A stretch of DNA of 54,157 nucleotides from Candidatus Adlerbacteria bacterium (GCA_903851045.1 CAINNF010000020.1:1-54157); one strand, 5' to 3'; numbered from the stretch's first letter, positions 20,384 to 51,644 are shown. Numbers and translations: made by a program. Notes: a model not told the origin generated them from the letters alone.

Positions 20384-21910
20384 ATGTTCGTTCGATGTCG
20401 GTGGCGCCGTGCGTTCGCACTTCTCGTACTCCTTTTCGGGGCTTCGTCCTTCGTAGTGCCGAACGATGTGTTTGCTGCAGACTTCTCGCTCACTCCGTCT
20501 ACAGGGTCGGTGGCGGTCGGTTCGAAGTTGTCGGTCAAGGTCACGATAGATGCCGGAAGCGATAGTGTGAACGCTGCGGACGGTACGCTCTCGTTCGACC
20601 CGACACTGCTCTCGGTCGACAGCATCTCGAAGGATGGTTCATCGTTCTCTCTGTGGACCGCAGACCCTTCGTTCTCGAACACTGACGGCACGGTATCGTT
20701 TAGCGGTGGTACGCCGACCGCTTTTTCCAATTCGGGAAAGGTGTTGACCATCGTGTTCAAAGGAAAGGCGATCGGCTCCGCGGATGTGACCTTCAGTAAA
20801 GGTTCTATTCTGGCTGCCGATGGTAAGGGTACTGATGTGTACAAGAACGGCAACAAGGGAACGTTCAGCGTGACCGCCGCGAGCGCAGCACCTCCACCGG
20901 TCACAACTCCGGTAGCTGACACACAGGTGTCCGCAAGCGACTCCACCGGAGATGGCGCCACTCCCATAGAGCCGATCGTTACGTCTCCCACGTATCCGAA
21001 ACCCGATACGTGGTATGGCACGAGCACGGCAGTATTCACCTGGCAATTGACCTCTGATGTGACCGCAGTGCGTACGTTGCTTTCGGACAAGGATAACGAC
21101 ACTCCCAAAGTGACGCTGGCTGGTGGAGCGACCACGACACAAACCGTGACGGGCATCAAGGATGGGATTTCCTATTATTATGTGCAAGCGAAGAACGATT
21201 ATGGGTGGGGAGATATCGGCAAGATAAAGGTCCAGGTCGATACGACGCCGCCGCTCACGTTCGATATCGCGTACCAGGAACCCGGCAGTGATGGGGGACC
21301 ACCGAAACTTGCGTTCAAAACGGACGATGCGCTTTCGGGTATGGACCACTACGTGCTGGCGGTCGGCACGTCGACACCCATCACTATCAACGTGAAGGAT
21401 ATCCCCGACGGCACGTATCCGGTACCACCGCAGGGCGGGGGACAGCAACATGTGGTCGTGCGGGCGTACGACAAGGCGGGGAACATGACCGAGGTCGCGA
21501 AAGACCTCACACTACCGTTCGTCGCGAAGCCAAAGCCGGCCACCGCGACGGACCAGACCACGGTCGCCCCTACGTCGTCGGGGTTCGGTGTCGAGGAGTA
21601 TCTGCTCGTGCTGTTCGCGCTCCTCCTGGGAGGACTCATCGCATGGGGAAGGTATACCCGCAAAACGGCGGCCAGAGAGAAGGAGAAGTTGTTGCAAGCG
21701 GTCCTTGAGGTGCGAGATAAGAACGACCGTATATTCTCCGCGATGCGAGAGGAGTTCGAGCAATTGGTACAGGATTTCGACGAAAAACCACAACTCACGC
21801 CGCAGGAACGCGCCTTACTTGAAAGTATCAAGGAGGTCTTGGATATATCCGAAGAATTGGTGGATACCGGGCTTGAGGATCTAAAAAAGATGGTCCGGAA
21901 TCAACCGTAG
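20384..21910 (+). CDS. Membrane-anchored cohesin-domain protein (cohesin + Ig-like module + TM + cytoplasmic coiled coil)
   Basis: Signal peptide, then FSLTPSTGSVAVGSKLSVKVTIDAGSDSVNAADGTLSFDPTLLSVDSISKDGS...GKVLTIVFKGKAIGSADVTF (cohesin pattern). VDTTPP...SGMDHYVLAV...VVVRAYDKAGN module. TM helix YLLVLFALLLGGLIAWG. Charged helical tail. Confidence 0.75.
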   Translation: MFVRCRWRRAFALLVLLFGASSFVVPNDVFAADFSLTPSTGSVAVGSKLSVKVTIDAGSDSVNAADGTLSFDPTLLSVDSISKDGSSFSLWTADPSFSNTDGTVSFSGGTPTAFSNSGKVLTIVFKGKAIGSADVTFSKGSILAADGKGTDVYKNGNKGTFSVTAASAAPPPVTTPVADTQVSASDSTGDGATPIEPIVTSPTYPKPDTWYGTSTAVFTWQLTSDVTAVRTLLSDKDNDTPKVTLAGGATTTQTVTGIKDGISYYYVQAKNDYGWGDIGKIKVQVDTTPPLTFDIAYQEPGSDGGPPKLAFKTDDALSGMDHYVLAVGTSTPITINVKDIPDGTYPVPPQGGGQQHVVVRAYDKAGNMTEVAKDLTLPFVAKPKPATATDQTTVAPTSSGFGVEEYLLVLFALLLGGLIAWGRYTRKTAAREKEKLLQAVLEVRDKNDRIFSAMREEFEQLVQDFDEKPQLTPQERALLESIKEVLDISEELVDTGLEDLKKMVRNQP

Positions 21911-22040
21911 CCCTACCTCAATGTTTTCAGCATTTTTTCTTTTATTTGCAAGCTACAATGTTCCCAGATACTAACAGTTTTTAGCCGTCGGTGGTGCTAG
22001 AATAAAGGAGTGGACGACGCGTATGCGTTCGGCATATTAG

Positions 22041-25000
22041 TTGCGCCCACCATGCATGCAAGCACCGATTACTATGTGGCGCACTAAAAGATGGAAACAG
22101 GTCGTCATGACGGTCGTGGCTCTTTGCGGTGTTGCCTACGTGCTGTGGCTCACGAGCGGTTTCGTATTGGCGTTTCGGCAAGTGAAGCGTGCTCATGTGT
22201 TCCCGACCAACGTTAACGCTATCGGTTGGAATAATGGCCAAGGCGCTCTGACGCAAGAGTTGCCGCCGCAGGCACCGTACGCGAGTTTTTTACAAAAAAA
22301 TTCCGCATATCTGTTCGTCGCGTCCTCTTCGTCAGCGATTATCGTACCGACCTCAGGCGGAGGAGGGGGAAGTGTTATCGATACGAGTCAACGTTCGGAT
22401 GGGACAACGAATGATGCATTAAGTGCGACCGCTACGCAAGCGACTACCACACAAGCGACTACCACACAAGCGGCCCCGACATCCCAGACATTTTCCGATG
22501 CCTCGACGACGCCCGCACAAGTGCCGGCTCCCGTCAGCGACACACCCGCTTCAGCCCCACTACCGACCTCATCAGACACGTCCTCACAGGTATTCTTGCC
22601 GATACCTCCCATCATCTCGCCTACGTCCACCCCCTCCACGCCCCCACCTCCGAGCGCTCCGGCACCGAGTAGTCAGGAGAGCACGACCACGAGCCTGCGT
22701 TCGGACCCCGCTTCGGACATGGCATTGCGGCTGGAACGAGTCGTTGCTGCGGTTTTCTCTGCTATCATCCCCCAAGCGTTTGCGACGTCGACCAGCGATA
22801 GCACCACGACACCAGTGGTCAGTACATCCACGCAAGATACGGACACGATTTCTGCGGCTCCCTCCGTGGACACTTCTGCGACTGCGGTCGCTACCTGTAC
22901 CGTGCTTGGAGACACGTGCCATATGTTGGAGTTCAGTGGTTTTTCGGTCGGAGGTTCTTTAACGAACAAAGAGTTTCAAAAAGCGGAGCTCAAGTTCTCG
23001 TTCGCACAGATGGCGAGCGAGTCGGACATGCGGGATGGGAAACTGTCGGTCCGCTACTTCCATAATGGACGGTGGCATAGTGCGGGGGAGATATATCTCA
23101 ACCAGGAACTGTCGAACGCGACGAACGGAGGCTATTTCACGCAGACGCTCGATGATGTCTCTGCGTGGGACGATCTAAGCGATATGCGAGTCGTGTTCGA
23201 GTATGAGCCGGGTGACGGTGCCAGTCCCGTGCAGCTCTACCTTGACGCAGTGTGGATCGACGCGGTCTATGTCGACCAGGTGCAGGACGTGCTCTCCGGC
23301 AATGTCAGTGACCCGACCGATGCTCCACAAAACATCTCGTTTGATGTTGCTTCGAACGTACAAGACTCGAACACGCTCATGTTGGACGATGGCAGCACGG
23401 TGTCGTTCCCGTTCCTGGATGCGCTCGATGATTCTTTGAGCGTACGTGTCGATCGGTCAACTTACCAAGGGTCGGCAACATCGACGGTCGTGTTCGCCAG
23501 CGTGACCAACACCGGGTCGAGCAAGGATACGTTCACCCTGTTCGCCTCGTTCCCTGGTGCGGTCGGGTCGGTGGCCGATGTGGCACAGTATCTGCGAAAT
23601 GTTCCGAACGAAGCGACCACGACCCAGACGAGCGACGTGACCTACTACTGCGATGTGGGATGGCAGCTCGCGTCGTCGATCGGACAGTACACCTGTGCTT
23701 CGACCAACGAAACGTATGTGTGTTCGACGGTGAGCGATACGAAAGCGAATTGTTTGGTGTCGAACGTGCCGGTCGGGGTCTCGACCAGTACGACCTATGG
23801 CAGTCAGTGGGTGTCGATGGGTATACATACAACGTCAGGCGTAGATGCGAAGGTCTCATCAGGATTACCCAAGGGGTATCAGATCGCCTATACGAGCGAC
23901 CGGTCGTTCGATGTCTTACCGGGACAGACGGTATATTTTCGCGTGACGCTCTCGACCCCCGACACGGGCAAGGTACGTTTCGTGTTATCGGCGAAAGGGG
24001 ATAACTACTTCGGCGATGTCGACTCCATGCGTCTGCAAAGCGGGACCTACCTTAAAGCGCAATCGAAGATCAAACAACAGACCAAGACGAAGCATGACTA
24101 TCTCAACGACCAGCTTTCGGAACAGTCGGACTTTAATGTCGACGAGTTGCCACAGTTCCACTTCAAGTTCAAGACACAGCGTGACTTCTTCACACGAGTG
24201 AAGGATTTCTTGTTCGGCAGGACCGTGCCCTATGCCGTACGGAGCGCACACCTGCGTCACGCGAGCGGCGAGATCGAGCATTTGCCGGTCGATATCGAGT
24301 ACGGAGCAAATGATGAGTGGACGCTCAAGCTCGAGAAACAGCAACGAGCCTTTCGTCCCGGCAAATATTCGATAGATCTCTCGATGCAAGAGGGTGGCAC
24401 TTCTTATGTCGATACGGTCGACTTCTACTGGGGTGTGCTCGCGATGAACCCCGATAAGTCGTCCTATGCGCCGGGCGAGACGGCCCACTTCGACATCGGT
24501 GCGCTCGATGATAAAGGTGACACGATGTGCGATGCGCAACTACTGCTGTCGGTCACCGACCCATCGGGCAACACGAGCGATGTGCCTGTGGTGAGCGGTG
24601 GTGGCTGCGGGAAGAATAACGTCACCTCGTTGCCCGACTTCGTCGCAGACTACACCACGAAGGACGAAGGGACGTACTCGCTCACATTGTCTCGACTCGA
24701 CGATGCGGGCAATATCGTGACCAGTGTGAGCAACGCGCTGACGGTCGTTAAGAGTGCACCGTACACGATCACCCGCACGGGGCCGACACGCATCTACCCG
24801 AAGTCGGCTTACCTGATGCAGATGCATATCGATGCGCCGCAAGGGTTCACCGGCAGCGTGGTCGAGACGCTGCCGGAAGGGTTCACGGTCACCGCGACGG
24901 ACGGTGCGGTGCTGTCGCGTGTGAATGGGGCCATCGATCTCACCTGGAACGTCTCTATAACGAACGGCGGTGGGAAGGACCTTTCGTACACCTTCAAAGC

Positions 25001-28000
25001 TCCCGAAGTGAGTCCGTACATGTACGCGCTCGGGCCACTGCAGCTGAACGACACCACCGGTACCGTCTTTACCGAAGGTCGGGCATGGCAGATCGCATCG
25101 GACGCCACCGCGATAGCGACGGGAGTAGCCTGGCTCGCGGGGAACGCGACCACCTTCGGCTCGAACCTGAGCAGCACCACCGCGTCTGCGCTGACGTGGA
25201 ATCTTTCGGCAGATTATGATTCAGCCTACTATGCATACTCGAGTAGCTCGCCTTCGCAGTTGGTCATCAATAAACCCGGAGATTACTTAGTGGCTTTGAC
25301 GCTGCCGATGGAGTCTACTGCAGCAGGAAGTTTCCGCACCGCTATCGAAGCCGACATACGCGTCAACGGCAACAAAGTGAACGCGGGAGTGTCGCGCGGG
25401 TATATTAGGACAAACAGCACTATGTTCGAGGTCTCAGATCACTTGTACCTGTTGCTACATAATCTGAACACCGGAGACTATATCGAGAGTTATGTGCACA
25501 ATCTGAGCACCAACAACGACACTATTAACATCGGTACTCAGGCAAGTCTGTACGCCGAGTATATCGACAACAGTCAAAATGTGTACTTTGGCGTCGGCAC
25601 CACAACTTCAAATGGTACCAATCTTAACCCCACAGCAAGTTCGACGGTGGTGTGGTACGATGACCCGACGCTTGGTAGAAAAGATTCGAATTATACGCAC
25701 ACGAATACTGACAACGCAGCTTCGAGCACGATCACACTTGCTGCCGCGGGGTCGTACTTGGTGTTGGTGAACGTTCCTCTGGATGGCGCAGTCACGAGTG
25801 CGAGTCCACGAGCCGATGTGCTGCTCAACAACATAAACGCGAGCGGCGCCGAATTTAAACAAGGATATATCGCCAATAGTACTGGTGTCACCGACTCGTC
25901 CTTGCAGTTTAGTGGTGTGGTAACGGCGACCACGACCAATGAGAGACTCCAGGTGAACCTCATCGTAGCTGGTGCAACAGGGGCGCTCACCGCGCTGAAC
26001 GATCAAGCATCGATCTATATCCAGCAACTACCCGCTTCAGGGATATATGTCGCGTCAGCGACGTCGACCTCCAACAACCTCACCACCAGTAATAACTGGA
26101 ACATTACTCCCGCGACAACCACACTGTGGACCACCGATCTTATCAAAGACGCGACCATATATGCCCACTCTACTTCGACACGATCGCAGCAGATCACCGT
26201 CGGCGCACCGGGCGACTACCTCTTGGCGCTCAACGACTCGCACACGGTCAACACCACGGTGACGAACCAGATAACGCAGGTGTTAGTGAACGGCACTCCT
26301 GTTGTTGGGGCGCAGACGAAATCGCATGACATCTACGCTAACACGCAAACGTCGGGTTCGTTGGTGTATCTCTTGCGCAACTTGGCTGCAAGTAGCACGG
26401 TAACGGTCACTACGGTATTAGACTCTGCAACGGGTATAGCGGTTGAAGACAAACCAGCGCTGCTCATGTTGTGGCACAAATCGGCGCAGAGTTCCTTCAT
26501 ACAAGATACGGAACGATGGTATACGAACGTCAACGCCGAACCACCCACCGACCCATGGCCGTCGGGCGGTATCGACCTGAACGAAGGCGACCCCATCACC
26601 ACGGGTGTTGCGGTGAAGTCGGGAGATGTCCTGCGCCTTCGTATGGCGCTCACGGCAAACGTGAACACGATCGCGGGTGCGGACTCGTTCAAACTCCAAT
26701 ATGCGCCGGGGACGACGTGCTCGCTCGCGCTCGCATGGACGGACGTCGGTGCTATCGGCAGCGGCTCCATCTGGCGCGGGTACCACAACGCAGCGCTCTC
26801 GGCGGGGCAAACGCTCTCGACGACCACGCTCTCGGTATCGTCCACGACCGAGACGTACGAAGAGCAGAACCCTTCTGCGGTCACGCCGCACTCGGTCGTT
26901 GTTGGGACGGACGCCGAGTGGGATTGGGTGTTGCAGGATAATGGCGCGTCGGTCGGGACCAACTACTGCTTCCGTATGGTGCAGTCCAGCGGACAGGTGC
27001 TCAAGGACTACAACGATTATCCGCAGCTCATCACGAACAACACGCCCGATGTGCCGACGCTTGATGCACCGTTCGATAACGAGAAGACCGCGAGCACGAG
27101 TCCATGGTTCACGTTCACGACGTCGGACGACAATGGTGATGATATCCATTACGAGGTCCAAGTGAGTACGGACCCTGCGTTCGGTTCCACGGTCATCGAC
27201 GAGGATTCCGCGACCTATTACACTAAATTTACGAATACGACGAACTCGGCGGACAAAGCTCCGTTCGGTGGTGGCCAGATCATCCAGTACACTCCGACGA
27301 TCTCACTTTCCAGTGGTACGACCTATTGGTGGCGGGTGCGCGCGAAGGACCCGAACGGGACGAACACCTGGAGCAGTTATTCGTCGGCGCAAAGTGTGAC
27401 GATCGATTCGTCGGTTACGGTGTCGACCTGGTTCCAAACGACACAAGGGCAGTTCGCGAACGACACGCTTTCGAACGTGAGCGCAACGGGTTCAAACGAT
27501 GTGCAGCTGTCGGGAGCGAACACGAGCGGTACCATCTATTCGCCGCCGATTGACTATACGGTGCACACCTCGGGCAACTCGTGGGGCACCGTGTCGTGGA
27601 CGAACACGCAAAGCGCGGGTAATACCATCACGTACCATGTCGAATATTTTACATCGACGAGTACATGGGCGGTCATTCCCAATAGCGATCTGCCGGGCAA
27701 CTCGACCGGGACGACGACGGGACCCATTATTCTGACGCAACTGGATCCAAGCGTGTACAATCTTATCCGTGTTCGAGGCGATTTTGTGAAGACCACGACG
27801 ACCCCGATACTCAGCGATTGGACCGTCTCGTGGGCACTTTCCGTCGCTCAGCCGTCGCTCATAACCTTGTTCGATAACGAAAAGACGGCGACAACGACGC
27901 CGACGTTCACGTTCACGACGACCGACCCGCAAGGGGATGATCTGCAGTATCAGCTCGAATGGTCGACCGATGCGACGTTCGCGACCGGTGTGACGATACG

Positions 28001-31000
28001 CACTTCGGGTACCGACCCTGGCTTTCTGAACACCGCATCATCTACCGATACATCACCGTTCGTATCGGGCAACACCGTTAGTTTTACGGTACAATCCGCT
28101 GATCGGCTCGCGAGCAGTACGACCTATTGGTGGCGCGTGCGCGCCGAGGATCCCAACGGAGGAAAAGCCTACTCGCTGTGGTCATCACCGCAGAGCTTTA
28201 CAACCGACACAACCGTACAGTCTTCGACCTGGTTCCAAACGACGAACGATCAATTTGGCGAAGACTTTCTCACACGCACCGGTACTTCGGGTGGTGGCGT
28301 GACCGCGACCTCGACGACCGGCAATATCGCCATCTATCGTGCGAACGCCGGGAACGACCCGATCACCACCGCTACGTTCAACAACTATTGGGATACGACG
28401 GTGCGCCAAGACAGTATCTTCTCGCTTCCCAGCACGACGACCATCCAACTACTTGCAACGGGTCACTACGCGGTCATGTACGGGTTGCGGTTCCGTTCAT
28501 CCAGCGGCACGAACCGTTCTGAGATCCAATCATATCTCAACCTCGCTGGTAACAGTCTCCCGATCGGTTGGTCACAGGCGTTCATCCGGCGCAATGGTGC
28601 TGCCACCCAAGGCTTCTCCTCGGGAGGGGGTATCATCAATGTGACGAGTTACAACGCACCGCTCATCGTACAATCCTTCAGGACCGATACGAACACGACG
28701 GCGGGTGTGATGCGAGAGGCGACGTCGTCCGGCGTATCGATCATCAAGTTGGATGATGCGTGGAGTTATGCGCGTTTGAGCAAAGCGACCAAGCAGACAG
28801 GGCCGATCTCGACGTCATGGATGCCCGTGACCTGGGACCACGAGGATGAGATTGACACGACCGCCTACGCCCACGCAAGTGGTGCCAGTGGCCTGACGCT
28901 CAAGAACCCTGGGCACTATCTGGTGTTCGCGAACACGTACGGATCGCTCAGAACCAACGTTTCCTCTATGGTCGACCAGAAGCTGAAGCTCGACAATGCC
29001 GATATCGACGGCAGCTTTACGACGGTGTTCATGAACGGTAACGCGAACTCCGACGGTGACTACCAAGGTGCCGCATCGGTCGGCACCATCATCCAGTCGA
29101 CGACCACGAACCAGGTGTTGACCGTCCAGGTGGCGCGCAGTCTCGGTACGGCGGCGTGGACGATCGACGGGACGTTCAGTGGTGCGTACGTCAACCGCTC
29201 GGGACTCACGGTGGTGAAGCTTCCTGATGCGGATTTTATTCGTCTGCAAAATTCGACGAGCACGAACATGGACCCGACCGCACTCACACCACTCACGTGG
29301 AATACCGAAGCCGAGAAGGATGCCTCGTTCACACACAGTACGACCACTACCACGAACAAAATCACCGTGAACACTGCGGGTGATTACCTGTTCCTTACGG
29401 CCAACTACGCGGCACCCGGTACGACCGCGAACGCACAGCCGATGCAGGGGTGGCGCAAGAACGCCGGTACGCTCGAGTTGTACGGGCAATCCGGGAGCTT
29501 CAATAGCACCGCGGTCACCGACACCGGCTCGTTCGGTGGTATCGTGTACCCCGGCGTTGCGGCCACTGACTACTTCGAATCCATCGCCCAGGCGCGCGGC
29601 ACCACGGGCACCGTGGGCGAGACGAAAAAAGGTATACAGGGGCTGCGTATCGGGTCACTCGCTGAAGCGGATACGAATCCAAAGACGGTCGAGTCTCCCG
29701 ACATCGTATTTAGTAGTGGTACCGGACCGAAATGGTCGACATTCTCGTGGAACGACTCGCGACCCGCATCGACGAATATCGTCTACCAGGTACTGTACCT
29801 CACCGCCTCCAGTACCTATGCGCTCGTGCCGGACGCGGTACTCCCTGGCAACTTCAACGGCTTCTCTACGACGTCGTCATCGGTGAATATCAGCAACCTG
29901 AACCGCACGACCTATGGGACACTGCGTACACTCGCCACCTTCACCTGTGCCGCAGGTAATTGTCCGACGCTCAACGACTGGACGGTCAGCTGGGCGCAGG
30001 GCATCAACGTGTCGGGTATCGCAAAGACGTTCGATCAGTCGACCAATGCCACCTACGGCACGGTCGGGGTCGCGGTCAATGGCGTCCTGCAAGCAGGGAA
30101 GACCGGTACCATCTCCTCCAGCGGTACCTGGACGATACCGAACGTGACGGCGTTCACAGGTGACGTCATCACTGTGTTCGTGAGTACGACCACGAGCGCG
30201 ACCCGTGCGGTCGCGGTCACCAAATATACTAGTACGAACGACATCACCGGCATGAAGCTCTACCAGATGCACCTTACGCTCGGCTCCGACGATAACCCGA
30301 CGCTCACGAACACCGACATCTCCCAGTACGACAATTCGGTCTCGGGTAACAGCGCCATCTTCGATGATGTGTCTGGCGGGACTCTCAATGTGTGCGCAGG
30401 CACCGCGTGTGCGAACGCGCGGCTTCTTGTCTCGTCCGGCACTGTGTATGAGCCGGGGGCCTCGGGTGGTAACGTGACGACACCGAATATACAAATCGAT
30501 GGGACACTCATTGCTGATGCGAATACGATTACCGTCACTCGCTCGTGGAAGAATAATGCCACGTTCAACAAAGGTTCATCCACGGTCATCTTCGCTGCAA
30601 CCAGTACGAACGAAAGTATTGATTCGACCAACGCGACGTCGAGTGCGGCGTTCAACAATGTGACGTTCGGCCAGACCTCAAGCACTGCGACATGGACCCT
30701 ACTGAGTCCGCTCTACGCGAGCAGTACGCTTGCAATCAATTATGGGACACTGCAAAACGGCGCGAATCCGATGGTACTCTCGGGCGACTTAACCATAGGG
30801 GCGAGTGGTTACTTCAGTCATGGTACCGGCACGACCACGTTCATGGGGACGGGGACTAATGTATGGACCGACAATAATTCGACCACCCAAGATATGGGCA
30901 CGGTCGTCATCGATGGTACGACGAAGACGGTGCAACTTGGTTCTGCCGTCAAGGCGACGAACATAACCATCGGCGCTGATGATACGCTCAATGCGAGCAG

Positions 31001-40499: not shown

Positions 40500-40573
40500 T
40501 GTCCACGCTGCGTACGCACGAGGTATTTCCACTGGGCGCTCGAGGTAGTAGAATACAAGCACATACTACTATT

Positions 40574-40924
40574 ATGACAGAACACACTATCCAGGAAGAG
40601 GTGGTCCGAAAGGGGGCGAAGCGGACGTTCGTACAGACGGTGTGGGTATCTGCCGAGTACCTCTCCGTACGTGTCCTTGAAGCGTTCGTAGCCAATGCCC
40701 GTATCATGCGAGAGGAGACCGATCTTTTTTTGGGAGCCGTGCTGTTCCTGCTCGGTGCGCTCAACTGGAGTAGTGCGAAATATTGCGATGGCAACAGCTC
40801 CGACTATCTCTCCTGCACCAGACCGGCGACCTACTACTACTATGGTGCGTTCGAAATACTCCTTATCGTCCTTGGCGTGGTCTTGGTCCTGCTCTGGTTC
40901 GTGAAGAGGCAGCGCACACGATAG
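40574..40924 (+). CDS. Small two-TM membrane protein
   Basis: Starts MTEHTIQEEV..., with TM helices LFLGAVLFLLGALNW and AFEILLIVLGVVLVLLWFV. The ORF is open from 40499, but that part overlaps the upstream gene end. Confidence 0.5.
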   Translation: MTEHTIQEEVVRKGAKRTFVQTVWVSAEYLSVRVLEAFVANARIMREETDLFLGAVLFLLGALNWSSAKYCDGNSSDYLSCTRPATYYYYGAFEILLIVLGVVLVLLWFVKRQRTR

Positions 40925-43759: not shown

Positions 43760-44968
43760 ATGAGACTCCGCGACATCCTCATGCTATCGACACGCATGTT
43801 CAAGACGAACCCGTCGCGTACGTGGCTCACGATCCTTGGCATGGGTGTGGGTACGGGGGCGGTCGTGGCCCTGGTGGGTCTTGGATTCGGCCTCCAAGGC
43901 ATCATCCTCGAGCGTATCGTGCTGGGGGATACGCTCTTGTCGCTTAACGTGACGAACCCTCCGTCGCATGTCGTCACGCTCGACCAGCCGACACTCGACG
44001 AGTTTTCCGCCAACTCGTTCGTGAAAGACGTCTCACCTATGACGAGCTTCGCCGCGTCCATCACCTACAACGGACTGACGGGTAATGCGAACGTCGAAGG
44101 TATGAAACCATCGTACTTCCTCTATACCGGCACCAAGGCCGCTGCCGGGCAGTTGTTCAGCGAACAGACGGCGAACGAAGATAACGACTCGGTCATCATC
44201 ACGACCGCGATGCTTAAGTTGTTCGGGGTGCAGGACCCGGCCGATGCCATCGGTCAGACGCTCACGATGCACGTGTTCGTGCCGCAAGAGGGGAGCGACC
44301 AAACGAGCGAGGTGACGCTCGATAAGCAGTATCATATAAAAGGAGTCAGTAGCGACGACGGGACGCTTGCCGCGATCCTGACACTCGATGAGTTCAAGGC
44401 GCACTTCCAGATCCCATACTACGAGCGTGTACAGGTCCGCGTTGTCGACAGTAAGTCGCTTGGACCCATGCAGGACCTTATCATCGCGAAGGGGTTCTCG
44501 GTCACCGCACTGTCGAAGACGGTCGATCAAGCGAACAAGATCTTTCAGGGCATCCAAGCGGTGCTTGCCGTGTTCGGCGGCATCGCGCTCACGGTGTCAG
44601 CCATCGGTATGTTCAATACGATGACCGTGACGCTCCTGGAGCGTACTGCCGAGATTGGTGTCATGCGTACCATCGGTGCGTCGTCGCGTGACATCGTCAT
44701 ACTCTTCGTCGCGGAGGCGGTCATCGTGGGTCTCCTCGGTGGTGTCGTCGGTATCGGTATCGGGGGCGGGATAGGTGTCTTCTTTAATGAACTGTTGAGC
44801 CTTGCCGCTGGCAAGTTCGGCGGCGTATCAGTGTCACTCTTTCGATACCCACTGCCGTTCCTTGGCTTCATTATTCTGTTCTCCGGCGTGGTCGGTTTCA
44901 TCACCGGACTCTTTCCTGCGAGACGTGCCGCGAAGATCAACCCTCTTGACGCGATCCGATACAAATAA
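43760..44968 (+). CDS. ABC transporter permease, FtsX/MacB type
   Basis: N-terminal TM helix (LTILGMGVGTGAVVALVGLGF), a ~230-aa extracytoplasmic domain, and a C-terminal 3-TM FtsX block (..MRTIGASSRDIV..). Ends ARRAAKINPLDAIRYK. Starts 6 nt after the ATPase gene. Confidence 0.88.
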   Translation: MRLRDILMLSTRMFKTNPSRTWLTILGMGVGTGAVVALVGLGFGLQGIILERIVLGDTLLSLNVTNPPSHVVTLDQPTLDEFSANSFVKDVSPMTSFAASITYNGLTGNANVEGMKPSYFLYTGTKAAAGQLFSEQTANEDNDSVIITTAMLKLFGVQDPADAIGQTLTMHVFVPQEGSDQTSEVTLDKQYHIKGVSSDDGTLAAILTLDEFKAHFQIPYYERVQVRVVDSKSLGPMQDLIIAKGFSVTALSKTVDQANKIFQGIQAVLAVFGGIALTVSAIGMFNTMTVTLLERTAEIGVMRTIGASSRDIVILFVAEAVIVGLLGGVVGIGIGGGIGVFFNELLSLAAGKFGGVSVSLFRYPLPFLGFIILFSGVVGFITGLFPARRAAKINPLDAIRYK

Positions 44969-45138
44969 CGAAGGATCGACGAAGTTCAACCGTACTTATC
45001 CACACAAACGGGAGGTGCGTTTTGAGGTACCTACCACTTGGTGTTACCATTGAATTCATGGATATACAGAAGAGTTCCGGCAAGGTAGTCGGTCGTGTCC
45101 GGCTTTTGCGTATTCTTCCATTTTTGCGTCCTACAACT

Positions 45139-46959
45139 ATGTACGGTAAGGTCACGTTTCTGACTACGGTAGGGTGTGCTTTGCTTGGGGTCGGCATCGT
45201 TGTCGGATCTTTTTGGAACGTGAACGTGCCGAAAGTAAGCGCCGACAATGTCACTACCTCGGTGACCGTGCTCAACACACCGCCAAGCTGGACGGTCCAA
45301 GCACAGGAGTCAATCGCATCGGCTACAACCACACCAACCAACGCGGGTTCTATTATCACCTGGACCGCAACGGCTACCGACTCCAGTGCGGACAATTACT
45401 GGCTCATCATCTGTAAGACGAATGCTGCCCCGACCGCGAACGCGAGTTCGACACCAACATGTGGTGGTGGCGTAGCCAACCAGTGGGCCGCTTCGAACTA
45501 TACGCTCAGCGGCCAGGTCGCGAGCGCCGCCACGACCACCATAGAAAAGTTTCCGTTCAATAATGAAAAGAACGACTGGTTCGCATGGATCTGCGACGGT
45601 AGCGCTTCGCTCCCGCTTTGTAACGCTGCCTATTCGATAGGTTCGGGCGACACCGGTTCGCCGTTCATCATCAACCACCCTCCAGCATTTACCGCTATCG
45701 TGAACACGTCGCCTCAGGTCCCGGGTGCCACCATCACCTGGACCGCGACCGGTGCCGACTCGGACATGATCCGAGGTGGCGACTCGATCAAGCTCTATGT
45801 CTGTAAGACGGCGGTGTTCTCCGGTGGTGTGTGTGGTGGCGGATACTGGGCATCTTCGACGATCGCGAGCACTTCAGCAGTAGCGACGTACTCGATACCG
45901 ATACCGACACAAGACACGAGTTACGCTGCCTATGCGTACGTTACCGACAACTACGGTCTTGTTGCGACATCGACGAACCAAGGCGCGTCCACGGCTTACA
46001 GCGTCAGCAACGTTCCGCCGTCGGTGAGCGCCTCTTCTATCACGGTGGTCAACTACACTGGTTCCGGTAACCTCGCGCTCGCGACGCCTAACGGGAAGAC
46101 CGACAACTATACGGTTACGTTCCAGGCGACCGACAATAATAGCTGTCAAAACATATCGAGCGGCAACGAAATGAACGCGGCAACCGCTTCTATTAACGTC
46201 TTTCGTTCAGGTATAGGATCGACCTCATGTCTTACGTCGGGTCAATTCAACTCTAACAATTGTTACCCTCGCGCATCCGGGTATACCAACTTTAGTTGTA
46301 CGCAAGATGGGGGATCATGTTCAGGACCGACCGACTCGACCGCAACATTCACCTGTACGTTCTCGCTGTGGTATAACGCCGACCCGACAGATGCTGGTTC
46401 GCAACACTCAGGAGAGAAGTGGTCGGCAACCGTGCAGATAGCTGATGATAACCTCGCGTCCAGTACCTACGCGGAAGCGACCGTTGGCAGCACCACGATG
46501 ACCAGTTTCTTGGCGTTCGCAGTGACCGAGAGTGCGGTCGCCTTCGGAGCTCTCCAGCCGGGGCAGCAAAGCGACCCTTCGGCGACGACGACGCAGCTGA
46601 AGGCTCTCGGTAACGTTGGCGTCGATGAGGCGCTGTATGGTGACACGATGTGTACGAACTGGACAGGTTTCGACAAGTGCGATAATACCGGTTTTGATAA
46701 CACGAAAGATATCGCGATTGCGAACCAAAAGGTCGCGACATCGTCGGTGCTGTATACATCCCCCTACGCCTACGCCCTGGCTGGCTCCACGACACCGCTG
46801 TCGGTAGCATTGCACGTGCAGAAGACGACCTCGACCAGCTCACCACAAAGCAAGCTCACCTATTGGGCTATCAAGATCCCGGCAACGATAACATTCGCAG
46901 GAAATTATTCTGGCCAAGACGTGATAACTGCCGTTACCAGCGCTGCGGCCAATTGGTAA
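45139..46959 (+). CDS. Secreted Cys-containing surface protein whose C-terminal ~270 aa are homologous to the C-terminus of the giant protein
   Basis: MYGKVTFLTTVGCALLGVGIVVGSFW signal/anchor. Two ..ITWTATA(G)TD(A)S..Y.L..CKT..C.GG.WA.S modules. The C-terminal WYNADPTDAGSQHSGEKWSATVQIADD...KLTYWAIKIPATITFAGNYSGQDVITA parallels the giant protein's QYFADPTDTGVYAGQHWLTTIAAQDS...NVYWGISIPTGVGADSYSGSNTFIA. The ORF is open from 45022. Confidence 0.75.
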   Translation: MYGKVTFLTTVGCALLGVGIVVGSFWNVNVPKVSADNVTTSVTVLNTPPSWTVQAQESIASATTTPTNAGSIITWTATATDSSADNYWLIICKTNAAPTANASSTPTCGGGVANQWAASNYTLSGQVASAATTTIEKFPFNNEKNDWFAWICDGSASLPLCNAAYSIGSGDTGSPFIINHPPAFTAIVNTSPQVPGATITWTATGADSDMIRGGDSIKLYVCKTAVFSGGVCGGGYWASSTIASTSAVATYSIPIPTQDTSYAAYAYVTDNYGLVATSTNQGASTAYSVSNVPPSVSASSITVVNYTGSGNLALATPNGKTDNYTVTFQATDNNSCQNISSGNEMNAATASINVFRSGIGSTSCLTSGQFNSNNCYPRASGYTNFSCTQDGGSCSGPTDSTATFTCTFSLWYNADPTDAGSQHSGEKWSATVQIADDNLASSTYAEATVGSTTMTSFLAFAVTESAVAFGALQPGQQSDPSATTTQLKALGNVGVDEALYGDTMCTNWTGFDKCDNTGFDNTKDIAIANQKVATSSVLYTSPYAYALAGSTTPLSVALHVQKTTSTSSPQSKLTYWAIKIPATITFAGNYSGQDVITAVTSAAANW

Positions 46960-46960
46960 C

Positions 46961-47974
46961 ATGAAAACGAAAGACTCGTACCTCTGGCGACTCAGGCGCA
47001 CTCGTCGCTTCTTGCCGTTGCTGTTCGTGGTGTGTACGTTTCTGCTCAGCTTCTCGGTCGGTGTACATCCCGCAGCTGCCGGATTCGGCATCACCCCGCC
47101 GTACGTGCGTAGTGATCGTCTGACACGGGGTACCGAATATACACAACAAATAAACCTGGTCCGTTCCGACCCGGAAGAAGACCTGAAGGTCGACGTGACC
47201 ATCAACATCCCAGGTGTCGACGGATGGTTCTCTATCGATAAAGGGAACGAGTTCATCATTCCCAAAGGGGTCACCCAGATGCCTATCGTCGTGACCGTGC
47301 ATGTCCCGACGGGGGCTGACTATAACGACTACAAGGGCACGATCCGTATCAGAACGTCCGCAGCGAACGTGCAGTCAGGGAGCGGTGTGTCCATCGCACT
47401 CGGTGCCCAGATCGATGTCGACATCAAGGTGGTCGATAAGATCTTCGACTTTAACGTGCGTCAGATACGCGTCGCTGACCTTGAAGAGGGGATACTGAAG
47501 TGGGGATTATTCTTCCCCGGCAAGATCCGTTTCTTCATGATCATAGAGAACACGGGTAACACCACGTTCGGGCCAAGCAAGGTGCACTTCGATATCTATG
47601 ATAGTAATGGCGAGAATCTGCTCGAGTCCGTCGACAACACGAACCATATCGAGCAGATCGCACCCTTCGCGACGAAAGAGGTGTTGGCGGAGCTCCCGAC
47701 ACGGCTTCCCGCGGGGTCCTACACCGTCAAGTATACGATCTACAAGAACAGCGACGTCGCACAGCAAGGCCAGATCAGTCTTAGTATCGCCGCACTCGGT
47801 AGTGTCCCCGGGTACGAAGGGTACGGGTTCGATGGTCTCTCGCTCACCGACAAGTTGAAGGTTGCCGGGGTGCTCGGCGCTCCGATAGTTATTCTGCTGA
47901 TCTTTGTGACAGCCTTGGTAGTCCGACGCCGCAGACGAAGTAAGAAAAAAATGAATGGGTACTCATCGCGATGA
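46961..47974 (+). CDS. Membrane-anchored protein with two Ig-like (CARDB/DUF916-like) domains and a poly-basic tail
   Basis: Signal peptide ...FLLSFSVGVHPAAA. GFGITPPYVRSD...INLVRSDPEEDLKVDVTINIPGVDGWFSI. FFMIIENTGNTTFGPSKVHFDIYDSNGE...AGSYTVKYTIY. C-terminal TM helix VLGAPIVILLIFVTALVV followed by RRRRRSKKK. Confidence 0.7.
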   Translation: MKTKDSYLWRLRRTRRFLPLLFVVCTFLLSFSVGVHPAAAGFGITPPYVRSDRLTRGTEYTQQINLVRSDPEEDLKVDVTINIPGVDGWFSIDKGNEFIIPKGVTQMPIVVTVHVPTGADYNDYKGTIRIRTSAANVQSGSGVSIALGAQIDVDIKVVDKIFDFNVRQIRVADLEEGILKWGLFFPGKIRFFMIIENTGNTTFGPSKVHFDIYDSNGENLLESVDNTNHIEQIAPFATKEVLAELPTRLPAGSYTVKYTIYKNSDVAQQGQISLSIAALGSVPGYEGYGFDGLSLTDKLKVAGVLGAPIVILLIFVTALVVRRRRRSKKKMNGYSSR

Positions 47975-49136
47975 TACGAATGCTGGTAGGACGGTACCGT
48001 GGCGCTATATATACGCACTGTTGGGTATAGCGTGTGTCATTGGTGTCGTCGTGTACGTCGTACGGCAGCCGCCACAAGCGCTTGCCGACATACTGCAGAC
48101 GAGCATCACGATCTCTATTTGTGGCAACGGACAGGTCGATCCCGGTGAGGCGTGTGATGATGGAATCGGGAACAACGTCGGCTCGTACGGTTCCACGACC
48201 GCACAGCGGGTGTGCTTGCCTGACTGTTCGGGCTATGGGCCGTACTGCGGAGATGGGGTGCTGCAGGTTCGTTTTAACGAACAATGTGACGAAGGTACGG
48301 CGAACGGCCCGACCAGTCTCTGTAGTGCAACTTGCGTCTCGCAACCTGCGGTACCGGCCTCGTCGCCGCCGCAAGTGCTCGGCAATATCCCGTCCCGGTC
48401 GGACGTGAGTCCCGGCGTCATTTCAGCGGCAGCACAGACGCAGGTGGTCTTGCGTGGGAAGGCGTATCCGAATAGCGATGTACACATCCTTCTTGACGGC
48501 GTAGCCGCCAGTATCGTGCGGGCCGACTCGAACGCAGACTTTTTATATAGTACGACCGACGTCACCCCCGGCACCGCAACGTTCAGCTTTTGGGCCAATG
48601 ATTCGGGAGGGGCGACCTCTGTGACCACATCCGTGGTCTTCGACATCGTCCAAAGCGCCGTTACGAGCGTCAACAACATCTTCCTTCCTCCAACGCTCAG
48701 TGTGAGCGCTCGACAGATAGCCCCAGGCGGGTTGCTCACGGTCTCGGGACAATCGGTGCCATCCGCGACGGTCATCATCAATCTGGACAAGGATACATCC
48801 GATGCGCTCGCAGCCGCGGTCGACCACAGTGGCACCTGGGCACTGCAGCTTGATACCAGCTCTATAACGCAAGGGTTCCATAGCGCGAAAGCCTCGTTCG
48901 AGCTTGCGAGTTCGAGCAGAAGCGGTTTCGGTAAATCCGTGAACTTTTTCGTCGGTAACCAGCTGCCGAAGGGTGGACCGTCTCCCGACATGAACGGCGA
49001 CGGTAAGGTGAATCTGGTGGACTTCTCGATATTTCTTCTCAGCTGGGGGACGCATGATGTGCGGGCGGACTTTAACGAGGATGGCACGGTCAACTTGGCC
49101 GACTTCAGTATCATGCTCTTTAATTGGACAGGATAG
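47955..49136 (+). CDS. Dockerin-bearing surface protein (TM/signal anchor + Cys-rich CxxGxxxxGExCDDG repeats + Ig-like domains + type-I dockerin)
   Basis: CGNGQVDPGEACDDGIGNN and CGDGVLQVRFNEQCDEGTANG are Cys-rich repeats. The C-terminus DMNGDGKVNLVDFSIFLLSWG...DFNEDGTVNLADFSIMLFNWTG is a duplicated F-hand dockerin. Confidence 0.8.
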   Translation: MGTHRDDTNAGRTVPWRYIYALLGIACVIGVVVYVVRQPPQALADILQTSITISICGNGQVDPGEACDDGIGNNVGSYGSTTAQRVCLPDCSGYGPYCGDGVLQVRFNEQCDEGTANGPTSLCSATCVSQPAVPASSPPQVLGNIPSRSDVSPGVISAAAQTQVVLRGKAYPNSDVHILLDGVAASIVRADSNADFLYSTTDVTPGTATFSFWANDSGGATSVTTSVVFDIVQSAVTSVNNIFLPPTLSVSARQIAPGGLLTVSGQSVPSATVIINLDKDTSDALAAAVDHSGTWALQLDTSSITQGFHSAKASFELASSSRSGFGKSVNFFVGNQLPKGGPSPDMNGDGKVNLVDFSIFLLSWGTHDVRADFNEDGTVNLADFSIMLFNWTG

Positions 49137-49159
49137 CGGCGGCACTTTAAAAAAACAGC

Positions 49160-49165
49160 TATACT
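49160..49165 (+). promoter_or_regulatory. -10 box TATACT, 6 nt before ATG 49172 (leaderless)
   Basis: tatact 49160-49165; ATG 49172. Confidence 0.45.
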
Positions 49166-49171
49166 ATACGC

Positions 49172-50116
49172 ATGCCCCCTTATTTCCTACGTATCGCTTT
49201 GGGAGTGCTGTTTCTCACCCTGCTTCCCGGAGTCGCTTCTGCTGCATCACTGTCGCTTGATCCGGCGACCGGTACCTATGGTCCGGGAGACACTTTTATC
49301 GAAACGATCCGTATCGATAATGATGGTGATTGTATCAATGCGGCGAACGTCGCGCTCACGTATCCGAAAGATACGCTCCGTGCCGTCGACTTCAGTCGTG
49401 GCGACTCGATCTTGAGTTTGTGGGCGGTCGAGCCGCGCATAGACACCGCCCAAGGCACGGTGGTGTTCGCGGGAGGTATACCGGGCGGATACTGCGGCAG
49501 GATCGCCGGCGATGCAGCACTGAGCAACGTACTCGGGGAGGTCATCTTCACGGTGATCGGTGCGGCAGCGAAGACCGCTGCGATCCACTTCTCTCCCGCT
49601 TCCGCGGTGTATCTCAATGATGGGGCAGGTACGCTGGCAAAGCTGACCACCCACGATGACACCGTCGCTATCGCCCCGACGGCGCAACTCTCGAACAATC
49701 AATGGCTTTCCGACGTCGCAAACGACCACACCCCACCGCAGCCATTCGTTATCCAGGTCGAATCGACCAGCGGTGTGTTCGGGGGGCGATACTACATCGT
49801 GTTTTCGACGACCGACAAAGAGAGCGGGTTGGACCACTACGAGATATTCGAGAACGGAGCATGGAGGCATGTCGCGAGTCCGTATCTGCTAAAGAACCAA
49901 TCTTTACTTGGGGTGGGTGACATACAGGTCCGGGCGATAGATAAGGCGGGTAATATTCGGATGGGTACCTACTCGCCGGCATTGACACCGAAGCGTCAGT
50001 TGTCGTTCACCGATTTTATACCGTTCGTCATAGTCACACTTGTCTCACTCCTCATCGGTATCTCGTGGTATCTCGAACATCGAAAGTGGAAAGCCCGGCG
50101 TGAGGTCCAGGGGTAG
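49172..50116 (+). CDS. Membrane-anchored cohesin-domain protein (paralogue of 20384-21910)
   Basis: Signal peptide ...LTLLPGVASA. LSLDPATGTYGPGDTFIETIRIDNDGDCINAANVALTYPKDTLRAVDFSRGDS...VIFTVIGAAAKTAAIHF (cohesin pattern). DHTPP...SGLDHYEIF...IQVRAIDKAGN module. C-terminal TM helix FIPFVIVTLVSLLIGISWYL. Confidence 0.75.
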   Translation: MPPYFLRIALGVLFLTLLPGVASAASLSLDPATGTYGPGDTFIETIRIDNDGDCINAANVALTYPKDTLRAVDFSRGDSILSLWAVEPRIDTAQGTVVFAGGIPGGYCGRIAGDAALSNVLGEVIFTVIGAAAKTAAIHFSPASAVYLNDGAGTLAKLTTHDDTVAIAPTAQLSNNQWLSDVANDHTPPQPFVIQVESTSGVFGGRYYIVFSTTDKESGLDHYEIFENGAWRHVASPYLLKNQSLLGVGDIQVRAIDKAGNIRMGTYSPALTPKRQLSFTDFIPFVIVTLVSLLIGISWYLEHRKWKARREVQG

Positions 50117-50117
50117 T

Positions 50118-50855
50118 ATGAAACGTATCTATTACGGCATCTTCCTTCTCAGCGCCACGCTGTTCCCGCTCTGGAGCGCTTCTGCCGCAGCTCTGTCCGG
50201 TGGTGAGTTGTATATGACACCCGAGAGCGACCTACGTACCATCGGTGAACCGTTCGATGTGCGAGTGTATGCCAATACCAACGGTCAGGCCGTCAACGCC
50301 ATCGAAGGAGAGTTGGTCTATAACCCGAGCGATCTATCGGTAGAGGCGATCTCTATAGACCACTCCGTTCTTGCTTCATGGTCCACGGTGCCGTCCTACG
50401 ATAGTGCCGCTGGGATCGTTCGATTTTCCGGATGGGCGGCGCAACCGTTCATCGGTTCCGAAGGATTATTGATAACTATTACGTTCCGACCCCTTCGGGT
50501 GGGTCAAAGTAGTGTAGATTTCAACTCCGGTTCCATGCTCGCGTCGAACGAAAGGGGAAGCAATATCATAACCTCGATGAGATCGAGTGTGTTTCGTGTA
50601 CAGCCCATACAGACGCAGCCACCGGCACCAGTGGTGCCGCTAGTCGCTTCTACGACGATCCAGTCTACCACCACCGATACACAGACCCCGGCCACGCCAC
50701 CTCCTACACAAGTGCCCCCAGCCCCGGAGCGGTCGAACGCCGCAGCACTCGCGCTCAGTGGTGTAGAGTTGGCACCGTTCCTCATCCCTTTTCTAGCGAT
50801 CTTGGCGCTCATCGCGTTCGGTATCGCGTACGTACTGCATCGCTTCACACGGTGA
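50118..50855 (+). CDS. Membrane-anchored cohesin-domain protein with a Pro/Thr linker
   Basis: Start ATG 50118 (MKRIYYGIFLLSATLFPLWSASAAA), 1 nt after the upstream stop. ELYMTPESDLRTIGEPFDVRVYANTNGQAVNAIEGELVYNPSDLSVEAISIDHS...LLITITFRPLRVGQSSVDF. PT-rich linker. TM helix LAPFLIPFLAILALIAFGIAYVL. Confidence 0.75.
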   Translation: MKRIYYGIFLLSATLFPLWSASAAALSGGELYMTPESDLRTIGEPFDVRVYANTNGQAVNAIEGELVYNPSDLSVEAISIDHSVLASWSTVPSYDSAAGIVRFSGWAAQPFIGSEGLLITITFRPLRVGQSSVDFNSGSMLASNERGSNIITSMRSSVFRVQPIQTQPPAPVVPLVASTTIQSTTTDTQTPATPPPTQVPPAPERSNAAALALSGVELAPFLIPFLAILALIAFGIAYVLHRFTR

Positions 50856-51644
50856 TCACATCTTCGATAGCATGATCGAGAGATCGTCGAGCCCTACCGA
50901 ACCGTTCATATTGAAGTCATATCGCGGATCATAGGGACCCAGCATCTTGAAGATTAGGATGGATAGGTCCACCAGATTTATCTTCCCGTCACCGTTCAAA
51001 TCCAAGTTTGGTGGAGTGGCTGTCGGTGCTGAAGGTGCACCGGAAGAACCGCCCCCCGCGACCACCAAGGTGTCTGGAGTTTTGATGGTATATGTTATGG
51101 TGCGTGTGTCCGTGTCGATCGGTTTACCCGTATCATTGCTCGGAAAGACCTGTACGTTCTTAAATTGGAGCAGTGCGGAACCAGGTGTCTTGGTGCGTAC
51201 CGTCAGTGTTAACATGGTCCCGGTACCCATGAGACCTCCTTGCTTGGTCGTGCCACCGCTGAAGTGTATCTCACCTGAATCCTCGTCGATACTCGTGTCC
51301 TCGGTCCACAAGTCAAAAAACGACCTCTCCTTACTTATGCCGACGATCTCAAGAGTGTCTTTTGAAAAGGAGATGGTCGCACCAAGAGCGTTGATTGGTA
51401 CCCTCGTATTGATGTTGATGTCGATCGTGGTCGTTGTCCCAGGAGGTATCGTCTCGTCCCCATACGGGGTAAAGAACACGGTCGTGGTGGTTCCTCCGAT
51501 CGACGACAGGCTAGAGGCGAGGAGACCCAAGATCGCGTTTGGATGTATCGCCACGAGCGACGCAACCCCTAATGTGACACTCAAGAGTAGGGCGACGTTC
51601 AGTCGCGTCAGTCGTGCTCGAATGTGTCGGCGAAGCTGTCGCAT
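50856..51644 (-). CDS. Cohesin + dockerin adaptor-type protein
   Basis: Signal anchor LNVALLLSVTLGVASLVAI. TTIDININTRVPINALGATISFSKDTLEIVGISKERS...MLTLTVRTKTPGSALLQF (cohesin pattern). The C-terminus DLNGDGKINLVDLSILIFKML...DFNMNGSVGLDDLSIMLSKM is a dockerin. Confidence 0.8.
   Translation of the reverse strand: MRQLRRHIRARLTRLNVALLLSVTLGVASLVAIHPNAILGLLASSLSSIGGTTTTVFFTPYGDETIPPGTTTTIDININTRVPINALGATISFSKDTLEIVGISKERSFFDLWTEDTSIDEDSGEIHFSGGTTKQGGLMGTGTMLTLTVRTKTPGSALLQFKNVQVFPSNDTGKPIDTDTRTITYTIKTPDTLVVAGGGSSGAPSAPTATPPNLDLNGDGKINLVDLSILIFKMLGPYDPRYDFNMNGSVGLDDLSIMLSKM

Follow-up and report, generated by a model that had tools for sequence, protein, structure and literature searches.

The locus considered in this study raises the question of what cohesin and dockerin modules, the two families found in cellulosomal systems, are doing among the surface proteins of a very small, probably symbiotic Candidate Phyla Radiation (CPR) bacterium. 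It lies in a stretch of 54,157 nucleotides from a Candidatus Adlerbacteria bacterium (GCA_903851045.1, CAINNF010000020.1:1-54157), all of which was analysed and is called the window below; this contig is also part of NCBI assembly GCA_903951275.1. The answer that appears probable, though far from certain, is that the locus represents an operon, conserved in CPR bacteria of the Parcubacteria group, for assembly of the cell surface, in which dockerins would plug into membrane-anchored cohesins. An initial annotation of this DNA had described a cohesin-dockerin network and proposed that it be checked by matches to the Pfam families Cohesin and Dockerin_1, by the predicted fold, by conservation of the Ca-coordinating D/N positions and by synteny in related genomes. 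All four checks came out in favor of the network, as detailed below, though several particulars of that annotation had to be revised. Five proteins carry the modules, and all topology positions given for them and for other proteins come from a simple hydropathy scan, not a trained predictor:

20384..21910, + strand: CohTM508, with a signal peptide, a cohesin at residues ~30-164 (nucleotides 20471-20875), an immunoglobulin (Ig)-like region, a transmembrane helix at residues ~401-424 and a charged cytoplasmic tail of ~85 residues.
47955..49136, + strand: Doc393, with an N-terminal hydrophobic segment, Cys-rich DUF4215 repeats, an Ig-like region and a C-terminal dockerin at residues 342-389 (nucleotides 48978-49121).
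49172..50116, + strand: CohTM314, with a signal peptide, a cohesin at residues 22-168 (nucleotides 49235-49675), a second β domain and, at the C-terminus, a transmembrane helix.
50118..50855, + strand: CohTM245, with a signal peptide, a cohesin at residues 27-163 (nucleotides 50196-50606), a Pro/Thr-rich linker and, at the C-terminus, a transmembrane helix.
50856..51644, - strand: CohDoc262, the adaptor, with an N-terminal hydrophobic segment, a cohesin at residues 52-188 (nucleotides 51081-51491), a linker and a dockerin at residues 211-262 (nucleotides 50859-51014).

A six-frame search of the window with hidden Markov models (HMMs) built from family members found exactly four cohesin-type modules, in the genes starting at 20384, 49172 and 50118 on the + strand and in 50856-51644 on the - strand, with nothing further scoring better than an E value of about 1. 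These four N-terminal modules are paralogous (27-31% identity over about 140 residues) and have in common the signature P..G...NA...S..W..G..F.G...G. When scanned in isolation against Pfam Cohesin (PF00963, cut-off 24.1 bits), the CohTM508 module (135 residues) scored 42 bits (E 1.3e-10) and that of CohTM245 scored 24.8 bits. Pfam and NCBIfam scans of the full-length proteins gave no Cohesin match at all; because isolated modules do match, this miss is an artefact of method or filter. Full-length scans of low-complexity surface proteins can mask genuine domains, and CohTM508 is an example. Among relatives, Pfam Cohesin was matched by 9 of 20 CohTM314 orthologues (best E 1.9e-6), by 12 of the 27 members of an alignment dominated by CohDoc262 orthologues, and by 20 of 30 members of the wider family. 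Compared with the sequences in the PDB, the CohTM314 orthogroup profile found cohesins only (best 5g5d_A, a type II cohesin complex entry, E 2e-4), and a 30-sequence family profile found the Ruminococcus flavefaciens cohesins 5m2o and 5aoz (E 2e-4). A profile of that depth was needed here, with single-sequence and 4-sequence queries giving sub-threshold cohesin matches only. On these profile matches the modules can be assigned to the cohesin family (PF00963).

The predicted structure agrees with this assignment. An AlphaFold2 (AF2) model of CohDoc262, built on a 27-sequence alignment, has a mean predicted local distance difference test score (pLDDT) of 86 and contains an all-β module at residues 54-187 with a pLDDT above 90 over the module. 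When this model was compared with the PDB using Foldseek, the top 35 matches were all cohesins (best E 6.8e-9, OlpC 4dh2; template modelling score (TM-score) 0.70-0.76), and they included CaCohA2 (6kgc), ScaB (4ums), Archaeoglobus 2xdh (TM-score 0.75) and Clostridium perfringens 2jh2 and 2vo8. The modelled CohDoc262 module thus has the nine-stranded β-sandwich (jelly-roll) of cohesins. A rather unlikely alternative is that the modules share ancestry with cohesins and dockerins without pairing with one another here: the β-sandwiches would bind another ligand, such as a glycan or protein of a host or of the cell's own envelope, the F-hand pairs would be Ca2+-dependent stabilizing or ligand-binding tails, and the genes would lie together because of a shared surface function. 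The fold resembles other β-sandwich binders as well, for example the CLIPPER adhesin domain 9ifr (TM-score 0.74), and the family of cohesin-like modules is so large (12,901 clusters at 50% identity, E <= 1e-3) that diverse functions are likely within it. However, the 35 best fold matches are true cohesins and not carbohydrate-binding modules (CBMs).

Two further features of the cohesin family were observed. The CohTM314-type cohesin has two invariant cysteines (C54 and C108) as well as an invariant insertion, GGIPGGYCG, which is absent from the other three cohesins; the PDB sequences that match it best belong to type II cohesins. Elsewhere in metagenomes the cohesin-like module occurs in 2-9 tandem copies, for example in P0052 (2,276 residues), so scaffoldin-like multi-cohesin proteins do exist in the family.

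The same kind of six-frame search found exactly two dockerin-type tails in the window, in Doc393 (47955-49136) and in CohDoc262 (50856-51644, - strand), as the initial annotation had proposed. Both exceed the Pfam Dockerin_1 (PF00404) cut-off of 22.9 bits, Doc393 with 25.9 bits at full length and 33.5 bits in isolation and CohDoc262 with 26.1 and 24.3 bits, respectively; Doc393 also matched NCBIfam dockerin_GC (30.5 bits against a cut-off of 29). Among solved dockerins, the profile matched 2jnk/2ozn of C. perfringens best (E 2.6e-4), followed by 2ccl_B and 1ohz_B. Both F-hand loops are present in the two proteins, and the Ca-loop positions scored over 82 homologous tails from the C-terminus (D1, N3, D5, D12 and S14 of each loop) are nearly invariant: loop 1 has D in 100%, N in 98%, D in 98%, D in 100% and S in 100%, and loop 2 has D in 96%, N/D in 98%, D/N in 94%, D in 100% and S in 97%. 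In the AF2 model of CohDoc262 the C-terminal helices fall at residues 224-234 and 252-261 with a pLDDT above 90. The HMM matches, together with two tandem F-hand Ca2+ loops that each have a predicted helix, argue for membership of the type I dockerins. Two exported proteins, Doc393 and CohDoc262, end in a compact two-F-hand dockerin. The possibility that the modules reflect chance or over-annotation was considered and rejected, as modules with their key residues are conserved in more than 80 loci.

The mean p-distance between homologues is 0.26 for the Doc393 dockerin and 0.25 for the MacB permease of the same cluster, while the remainder of Doc393 is at 0.48. Because the dockerin is as conserved as MacB while its carrier diverges, this points to selection on the Doc393 dockerin itself. 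A dockerin constrained more strongly than its carrier is not what would be expected if the modules do not pair. Also, a cohesin and a dockerin are fused in 29 open reading frames (ORFs) of the fetched loci, as they are in adaptor scaffoldins. CohDoc262 does have this adaptor architecture (cohesin plus C-terminal dockerin), and the adaptor-scaffoldin logic that the initial annotation saw in the minus-strand protein is therefore conserved. Four homologues (P0010, P0012, P0016 and P0020) carry the precomputed Pfam assignment PF27334.1. Behind this accession may be a recent model of the adaptor family with cohesin and dockerin, or of the linker, a point that would matter for novelty.

The three single-cohesin proteins have signal peptides with VFA/ASA sites and one further transmembrane helix each (residues ~401-424 in CohTM508, 279-297 in CohTM314 and 222-240 in CohTM245), and are predicted to be fixed in the cytoplasmic membrane by that helix. 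The initial annotation had all three proteins ending in the helix. The helix was found in each, but only CohTM314 and CohTM245 have just a short basic tail after it, whereas in CohTM508 it is followed by the charged tail of ~85 residues. That annotation also placed all four cohesin modules directly behind a signal peptide; the modules themselves were recovered where it had them, by HMM and by fold, but for CohDoc262 the signal peptide is doubtful. Doc393, CohDoc262 and a giant protein of the cluster have a single N-terminal hydrophobic segment with no clear AXA site, and in Doc393 and CohDoc262 this segment may be an uncleaved anchor instead of a signal peptide. No match to surface-layer homology (SLH) domains or LPXTG signals was obtained in the Pfam and NCBIfam scans, and the transmembrane helices serve instead.

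The genes for these proteins are embedded in fixed order among those for extracellular proteins rich in Ig and fibronectin type III (FN3) domains (the giant protein, p645, FN3_472 and p337) and for a MacB-type transporter. The remaining genes of this region are:

19828..20316, + strand: Hsp20 small heat-shock protein (Pfam HSP20, E 2e-11), the conserved opening gene of the cluster.
22041..39767, + strand: giant surface protein of 5,908 residues, with a putative hydrophobic anchor at the N-terminus, Ig-like domains, DUF2341 and, at the C-terminus, a domain in common with p645.
39789..40499, + strand: p236, an N-terminal transmembrane helix and a domain that looks helical by eye; conserved 3' of the giant gene in many loci.
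40499..40924, + strand: p141, a small protein with a C-terminal transmembrane helix; position conserved.
40984..42402, + strand: FN3_472, secreted, with FN3 and purple-acid-phosphatase-N-like domains (Pfam fn3, E 4.9e-21; Pur_ac_phosph_N, E 1.2e-22).
42408..43754, + strand: ABC transporter ATPase of 448 residues (Pfam ABC_tran, E 7e-31).
43760..44968, + strand: MacB/FtsX-type ABC permease (Pfam MacB_PCD, E 4e-18; FtsX, E 5e-17).
45139..46959, + strand: p645 (606 residues as called), a secreted protein of successive Ig-like β-sandwich domains that contain conserved cysteines; all-β in the AF2 model.
46961..47974, + strand: p337, with a signal peptide, two CARDB/E-set-like β-sandwich domains and, at the C-terminus, a transmembrane helix with a basic tail.
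51661..52458, - strand: p265, an N-terminal transmembrane helix and an extracytoplasmic domain without a Pfam match; the conserved partner downstream of the adaptor gene.
52575..52949, + strand: p124, small, with a C-terminal transmembrane helix and divergent transcription; conserved in nearly all reference-genome loci.

Conservation of this arrangement was examined in two scans. A search of reference genomes, one per GTDB species, with the CohDoc262 alignment as query returned 23 loci. All of them are from metagenome-assembled genomes of Patescibacteria/CPR, in agreement with the organism being a CPR bacterium. Those of Ca. Adlerbacteria are nearest; further labels are Paceibacterota, Parcubacteria and Minisyncoccia, with 'uncultured Ca. 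Saccharibacteria' given for several. The CohDoc262 orthologues in these 23 genomes are 42-66% identical. Every reference locus that is long enough has the order FN3 protein, ABC ATPase, MacB permease, p645, p337, Doc393, CohTM314 and a second single-cohesin membrane protein, followed by CohDoc262 and p265 on the opposite strand and then by the divergent p124. A metagenome scan anchored on the FN3 protein gave 80 loci, and over the 23 GTDB species and the metagenome loci the gene order is kept down to 35-40% protein identity. In six of the metagenome loci (L057-59, L070, L091 and L097) Hsp20 and a CohTM508 orthologue lie directly upstream of the giant homologue, which matches the window, and in a closer relative (L107) the order signal peptidase (S26), Hsp20, cohesin recurs before the contig ends. 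Because gene order recurs across reference and metagenome loci, Hsp20 through p265 is one conserved cluster of about 15 genes. The genes are tightly packed, with many gaps of 0-36 nucleotides, two overlapping gene pairs and largest gaps of 130-170 nucleotides. Consensus scans for promoters and terminators gave nothing above shuffled expectation, and the database names of homologues were 'hypothetical protein' only. The dockerin gene lies directly upstream of the CohTM314 gene in every locus with downstream DNA present, an adjacency that speaks against modules that do not pair.

The permease has MacB_PCD and FtsX matches and a separate ATPase, and on this basis the pair is classed as a MacB-type (type VII) transporter. 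Relatives in the reference-genome scan are 69-85% identical for the ATPase (a gene call for which is also present in L001) and 73-84% identical for the permease. The hydropathy of the permease, with one N-terminal and four C-terminal hydrophobic windows, is roughly as expected for the FtsX type. No protein of the cluster had a family match to a MacA/HlyD adaptor or to a TolC outer-membrane duct, and the transporter is therefore not a tripartite efflux pump.

The initial annotation described the network as built around the giant gene. Linkage to this gene is indeed conserved, as a giant homologue precedes p236, p141 and the FN3 protein in almost all metagenome loci with enough upstream DNA. However, the window-wide HMM scan found no cohesin or dockerin in the giant ORF, and the link between the giant protein and the cohesin-dockerin network is genomic only. 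Its Pfam matches are limited to Ig_Rha78A_N and DUF2341. Most giant homologues are 46-64% identical and run off the 10-kb flank after 2,000-3,300 residues, but in a divergent subgroup (L057, L058, L070, L089, L091, L093 and L097) the homologue has only about 860 residues, and 686 in L059. The equivalent of this short form in the giant protein is residues ~5167-5904. Because one subgroup of loci does with so small a homologue, the cluster does not require gigantism, and the giant size arose by lineage-specific expansion from a smaller core. In six loci of the divergent subgroup an extra, longer dockerin-type protein (560-663 residues in four of them) precedes Hsp20.

The last ~300 residues of the giant protein are 29% identical to the C-terminus of p645 (E 2e-20). 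This domain (38900-39764 in the giant gene, 46000-46956 in p645) ends in a conserved YW-x-I-x-IP ... Y-x-G, had no Pfam or PDB sequence match, and may act as a signal for sorting or assembly. The homologues of p645 number at least 465, all of uniform length and all unnamed; its AF2 model (pLDDT 80) is a chain of Ig-like sandwiches for which Foldseek returned generic Ig/MG-type matches only, without a functional clue. The 31 orthologues of p337 gave weak Pfam matches, mostly below cut-offs (GH123_N_2 in 15, CopC in 9, CARDB in 4 and WxLIP_HBD in 3), and p236 and p265 gave no Pfam match. A WxL/Csc-type cluster was considered for p645, p337 and the giant C-terminus and was rejected: WxL did not match p645 or the giant C-terminus even at E values up to 1, and the 3 of 31 WxLIP_HBD matches in p337 orthologues were below threshold (E 0.05-0.09). 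The absence of any glycoside hydrolase (GH) or CBM from the window, claimed in the initial annotation, is consistent with Pfam scans of all large ORFs, which did not cover all small ones.

Several observations concern the window outside the cluster. A bacterial 16S rRNA gene at 6551-8012 is followed by an unannotated ORF of 250 residues (8274-9026) and by tRNA-Ile (9114-9187), and no 23S or 5S rRNA was found anywhere in the window. From ~9200 to 13400 the GC content is 0.42-0.47, compared to about 0.56, and only small ORFs are present. The region 6551-13400 may represent an unlinked rRNA operon with inserted or mobile DNA. SecD and SecF (2507-4824) and a type I signal peptidase S26 (19139-19765) are encoded in the window, and a 375-residue protein at 16820-17947 has three stretches that match YbjQ_1 (putative heavy-metal-binding), an unusual tandem arrangement.

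The model that best accommodates these data is one of non-covalent surface tethering. The dockerins of Doc393 and CohDoc262 would plug Ca2+-dependently into the membrane-anchored cohesins, which would keep Doc393 at the surface by direct contact or by way of the CohDoc262 adaptor's cohesin. The cohesins with transmembrane helices would take the anchoring role that SLH domains or sortase have in cellulosome-producing bacteria, and in this way non-enzymatic surface proteins could be tethered to the membrane of a cell with no apparent SLH or sortase signals in the locus. The displayed proteins would be non-enzymatic binding or structural modules, and a fibrous attachment or envelope structure is a more likely role than polysaccharide degradation. 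More speculatively, the MacB-type transporter may have a part in releasing or handling those components that are anchored by their N-terminus. The tethering itself is supported because the dockerin gene invariably adjoins a cohesin gene, the two modules are fused in 29 ORFs and the Doc393 dockerin is constrained, whereas a role in host attachment and any role for the ABC transporter are offered as hypotheses.

Several results do not sit well with this model, and some of them are what modules that do not pair would produce. The CohTM314 and CohDoc262 modules remained below the Pfam Cohesin threshold even in isolation, so that the match is weak or absent for two of the four modules in the window. 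The cluster has twice as many cohesins as dockerins (4 vs 2), and this excess also counts in favor of modules that do not pair. A mirror-tree test over 22 loci found that dockerin-cohesin co-variation was no greater than dockerin-control co-variation and assigned no partners; the lack of specific co-variation is compatible with modules that do not pair. In addition, the giant protein, p645 and FN3_472 have no dockerin, and the largest surface components are thus not obviously plugged into the cohesins. Finally, if Doc393 and CohDoc262 do keep an uncleaved N-terminal anchor, this would render tethering by their dockerins redundant.

The mirror-tree data also bear on a related arrangement, considered very unlikely, in which CohDoc262 would polymerize head-to-tail on a base of membrane cohesins to form a non-covalent fibre with Doc393 as its Cys-rich tip, following the base-shaft-tip logic of sortase pili. 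The three architectures that this would need (a cohesin with a transmembrane helix, a cohesin-dockerin fusion, and a dockerin-only protein with a distal Cys-rich domain) are conserved together, and the CohDoc262 dockerin and cohesin evolve at an equal rate (p-distance 0.49 each). However, the partial correlation between the CohDoc262 dockerin and its own cohesin is 0.36, which is not above the controls (0.37-0.45), the N-terminal hydrophobic segment may persist as an anchor, and we know of no established mechanism by which cohesin-dockerin proteins polymerize through self-binding. A more elaborate version, to which a low probability is assigned but not quite so low, is a surface organelle made purely from non-covalent cohesin-dockerin contacts, with a cohesin base, an extendable cohesin-dockerin shaft or adaptor and a Cys-rich dockerin tip. 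Its assembly would be linked to a mechanotransducer of the MacB type, which would pull the giant and Ig-rich proteins out of the membrane in which they are anchored by their N-terminus. If true, this would amount to a novel mode of envelope anchoring and assembly in place of sortase or SLH systems, and these episymbionts could use it to attach.

CPR bacteria often live as episymbionts, and this lends some appeal to the idea that the dockerins or cohesins act in trans between cells and engage complementary modules or receptors on host or sister cells. In Southlakia epibionticum, an epibiont, one essential protein carries a dockerin domain (PMC10633639), and an adhesin function has been proposed for non-cellulosomal dockerins located on giant ORFs (PMC10066038; bioRxiv 10.1101/2023.11.21.568195). 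This is nonetheless the least probable of the explanations weighed here. Both partners are encoded side by side in one operon in every genome examined, which favors pairing within the cell, and nothing in the window points to a host receptor.

To our knowledge, apart from the type IV pili of Saccharibacteria little has been learned of how CPR/Patescibacteria attach to and interact with their hosts, and most large CPR surface proteins are without annotation. The cluster supplies modules whose binding mechanism is well understood, of high affinity and amenable to experiment. A 2 x 4 dockerin-cohesin matrix could be measured with small recombinant domains from these uncultivated organisms, and would reveal which surface proteins are tethered and how. 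The cluster also brings cohesin-dockerin biology into a new lineage with a new mode of anchoring, and may provide orthogonal, compact cohesin-dockerin pairs for protein engineering.

Compared with the type I and II systems of cellulosomes (CipA-OlpB-SdbA of Acetivibrio/Clostridium thermocellum, ScaA/ScaB of Acetivibrio cellulolyticus), the cluster uses the same two families (PF00963 and PF00404), with the same cohesin fold and the same duplicated F-hand with D/N Ca2+ ligands, and it has an adaptor with a cohesin and a C-terminal dockerin as well as single-cohesin anchoring proteins. However, it is not a cellulosome. The cluster has no dockerin-bearing carbohydrate-active or other enzyme, no CBM and no multi-cohesin primary scaffoldin, each cohesin protein has a single module, and anchoring is by transmembrane helices instead of SLH domains or sortase. 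Its dockerins are also compact, with about 28 residues between loop starts compared to about 35 in the C. thermocellum Xyn dockerin, and unlike the cellulosome producers the organism belongs to the CPR and has a reduced genome.

Non-cellulosomal cohesin and dockerin modules are known in all three domains of life (Peer et al. 2009, as cited in PMC10066038). Those of the C. perfringens glycosidase/toxin complexes (2jh2, 2vo8, 2ozn), of Archaeoglobus fulgidus (2xdh) and of the Ruminococcus bromii amylosome (PMC4611034) are likewise used outside cellulose degradation, and some of the best fold matches found here were to the cohesins of A. fulgidus and C. perfringens (TM-score 0.75-0.76). Those modules sit on enzymes or occur in isolation without a conserved operon, whereas here they are on non-enzymatic membrane and surface proteins in a fixed cluster. 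Proteins with a single cohesin and a transmembrane helix at the C-terminus have been proposed, as 'non-SLH anchoring scaffoldins', to tether dockerin proteins to the membrane, in some cases in non-cellulolytic bacteria, termed 'scaffoldin-containing microbes' (PMC11557425). They are from Firmicutes and Planctomycetes-Verrucomicrobia-Chlamydiae (PVC) bacteria with many dockerin proteins and have no reported linkage to a giant surface protein or ABC transporter, and that paper does not mention CPR genomes (0 occurrences of Patescibacteria or Candidatus).

Among ultra-small and probably host-dependent bacteria with giant surface ORFs, the Omnitrophota have dockerin repeats within the giant proteins, for which a role in attachment was proposed (bioRxiv 10.1101/2023.11.21.568195; PMC10066038). 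In the cluster described here the giant protein has no dockerin; instead, small proteins encoded separately in the same operon carry the dockerins and cohesins. SEML1_0315 of Southlakia epibionticum (Saccharibacteria) is likewise a CPR dockerin-domain protein of the cell envelope, essential or important for growth of the epibiont, but no cohesin partner or operon was described for it (PMC10633639). In the literature on cohesin or dockerin with CPR, Patescibacteria or Parcubacteria that was searched, no description of this cluster was found; the initial annotation's statement that it knew of no such described system holds to that extent, but there are precedents for non-cellulosomal pairs and for single cohesins anchored by transmembrane helices. 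This suggests that while the module types were already known, what is new is the probable cohesin-dockerin surface tethering in a conserved CPR operon with cohesins anchored by transmembrane helices.

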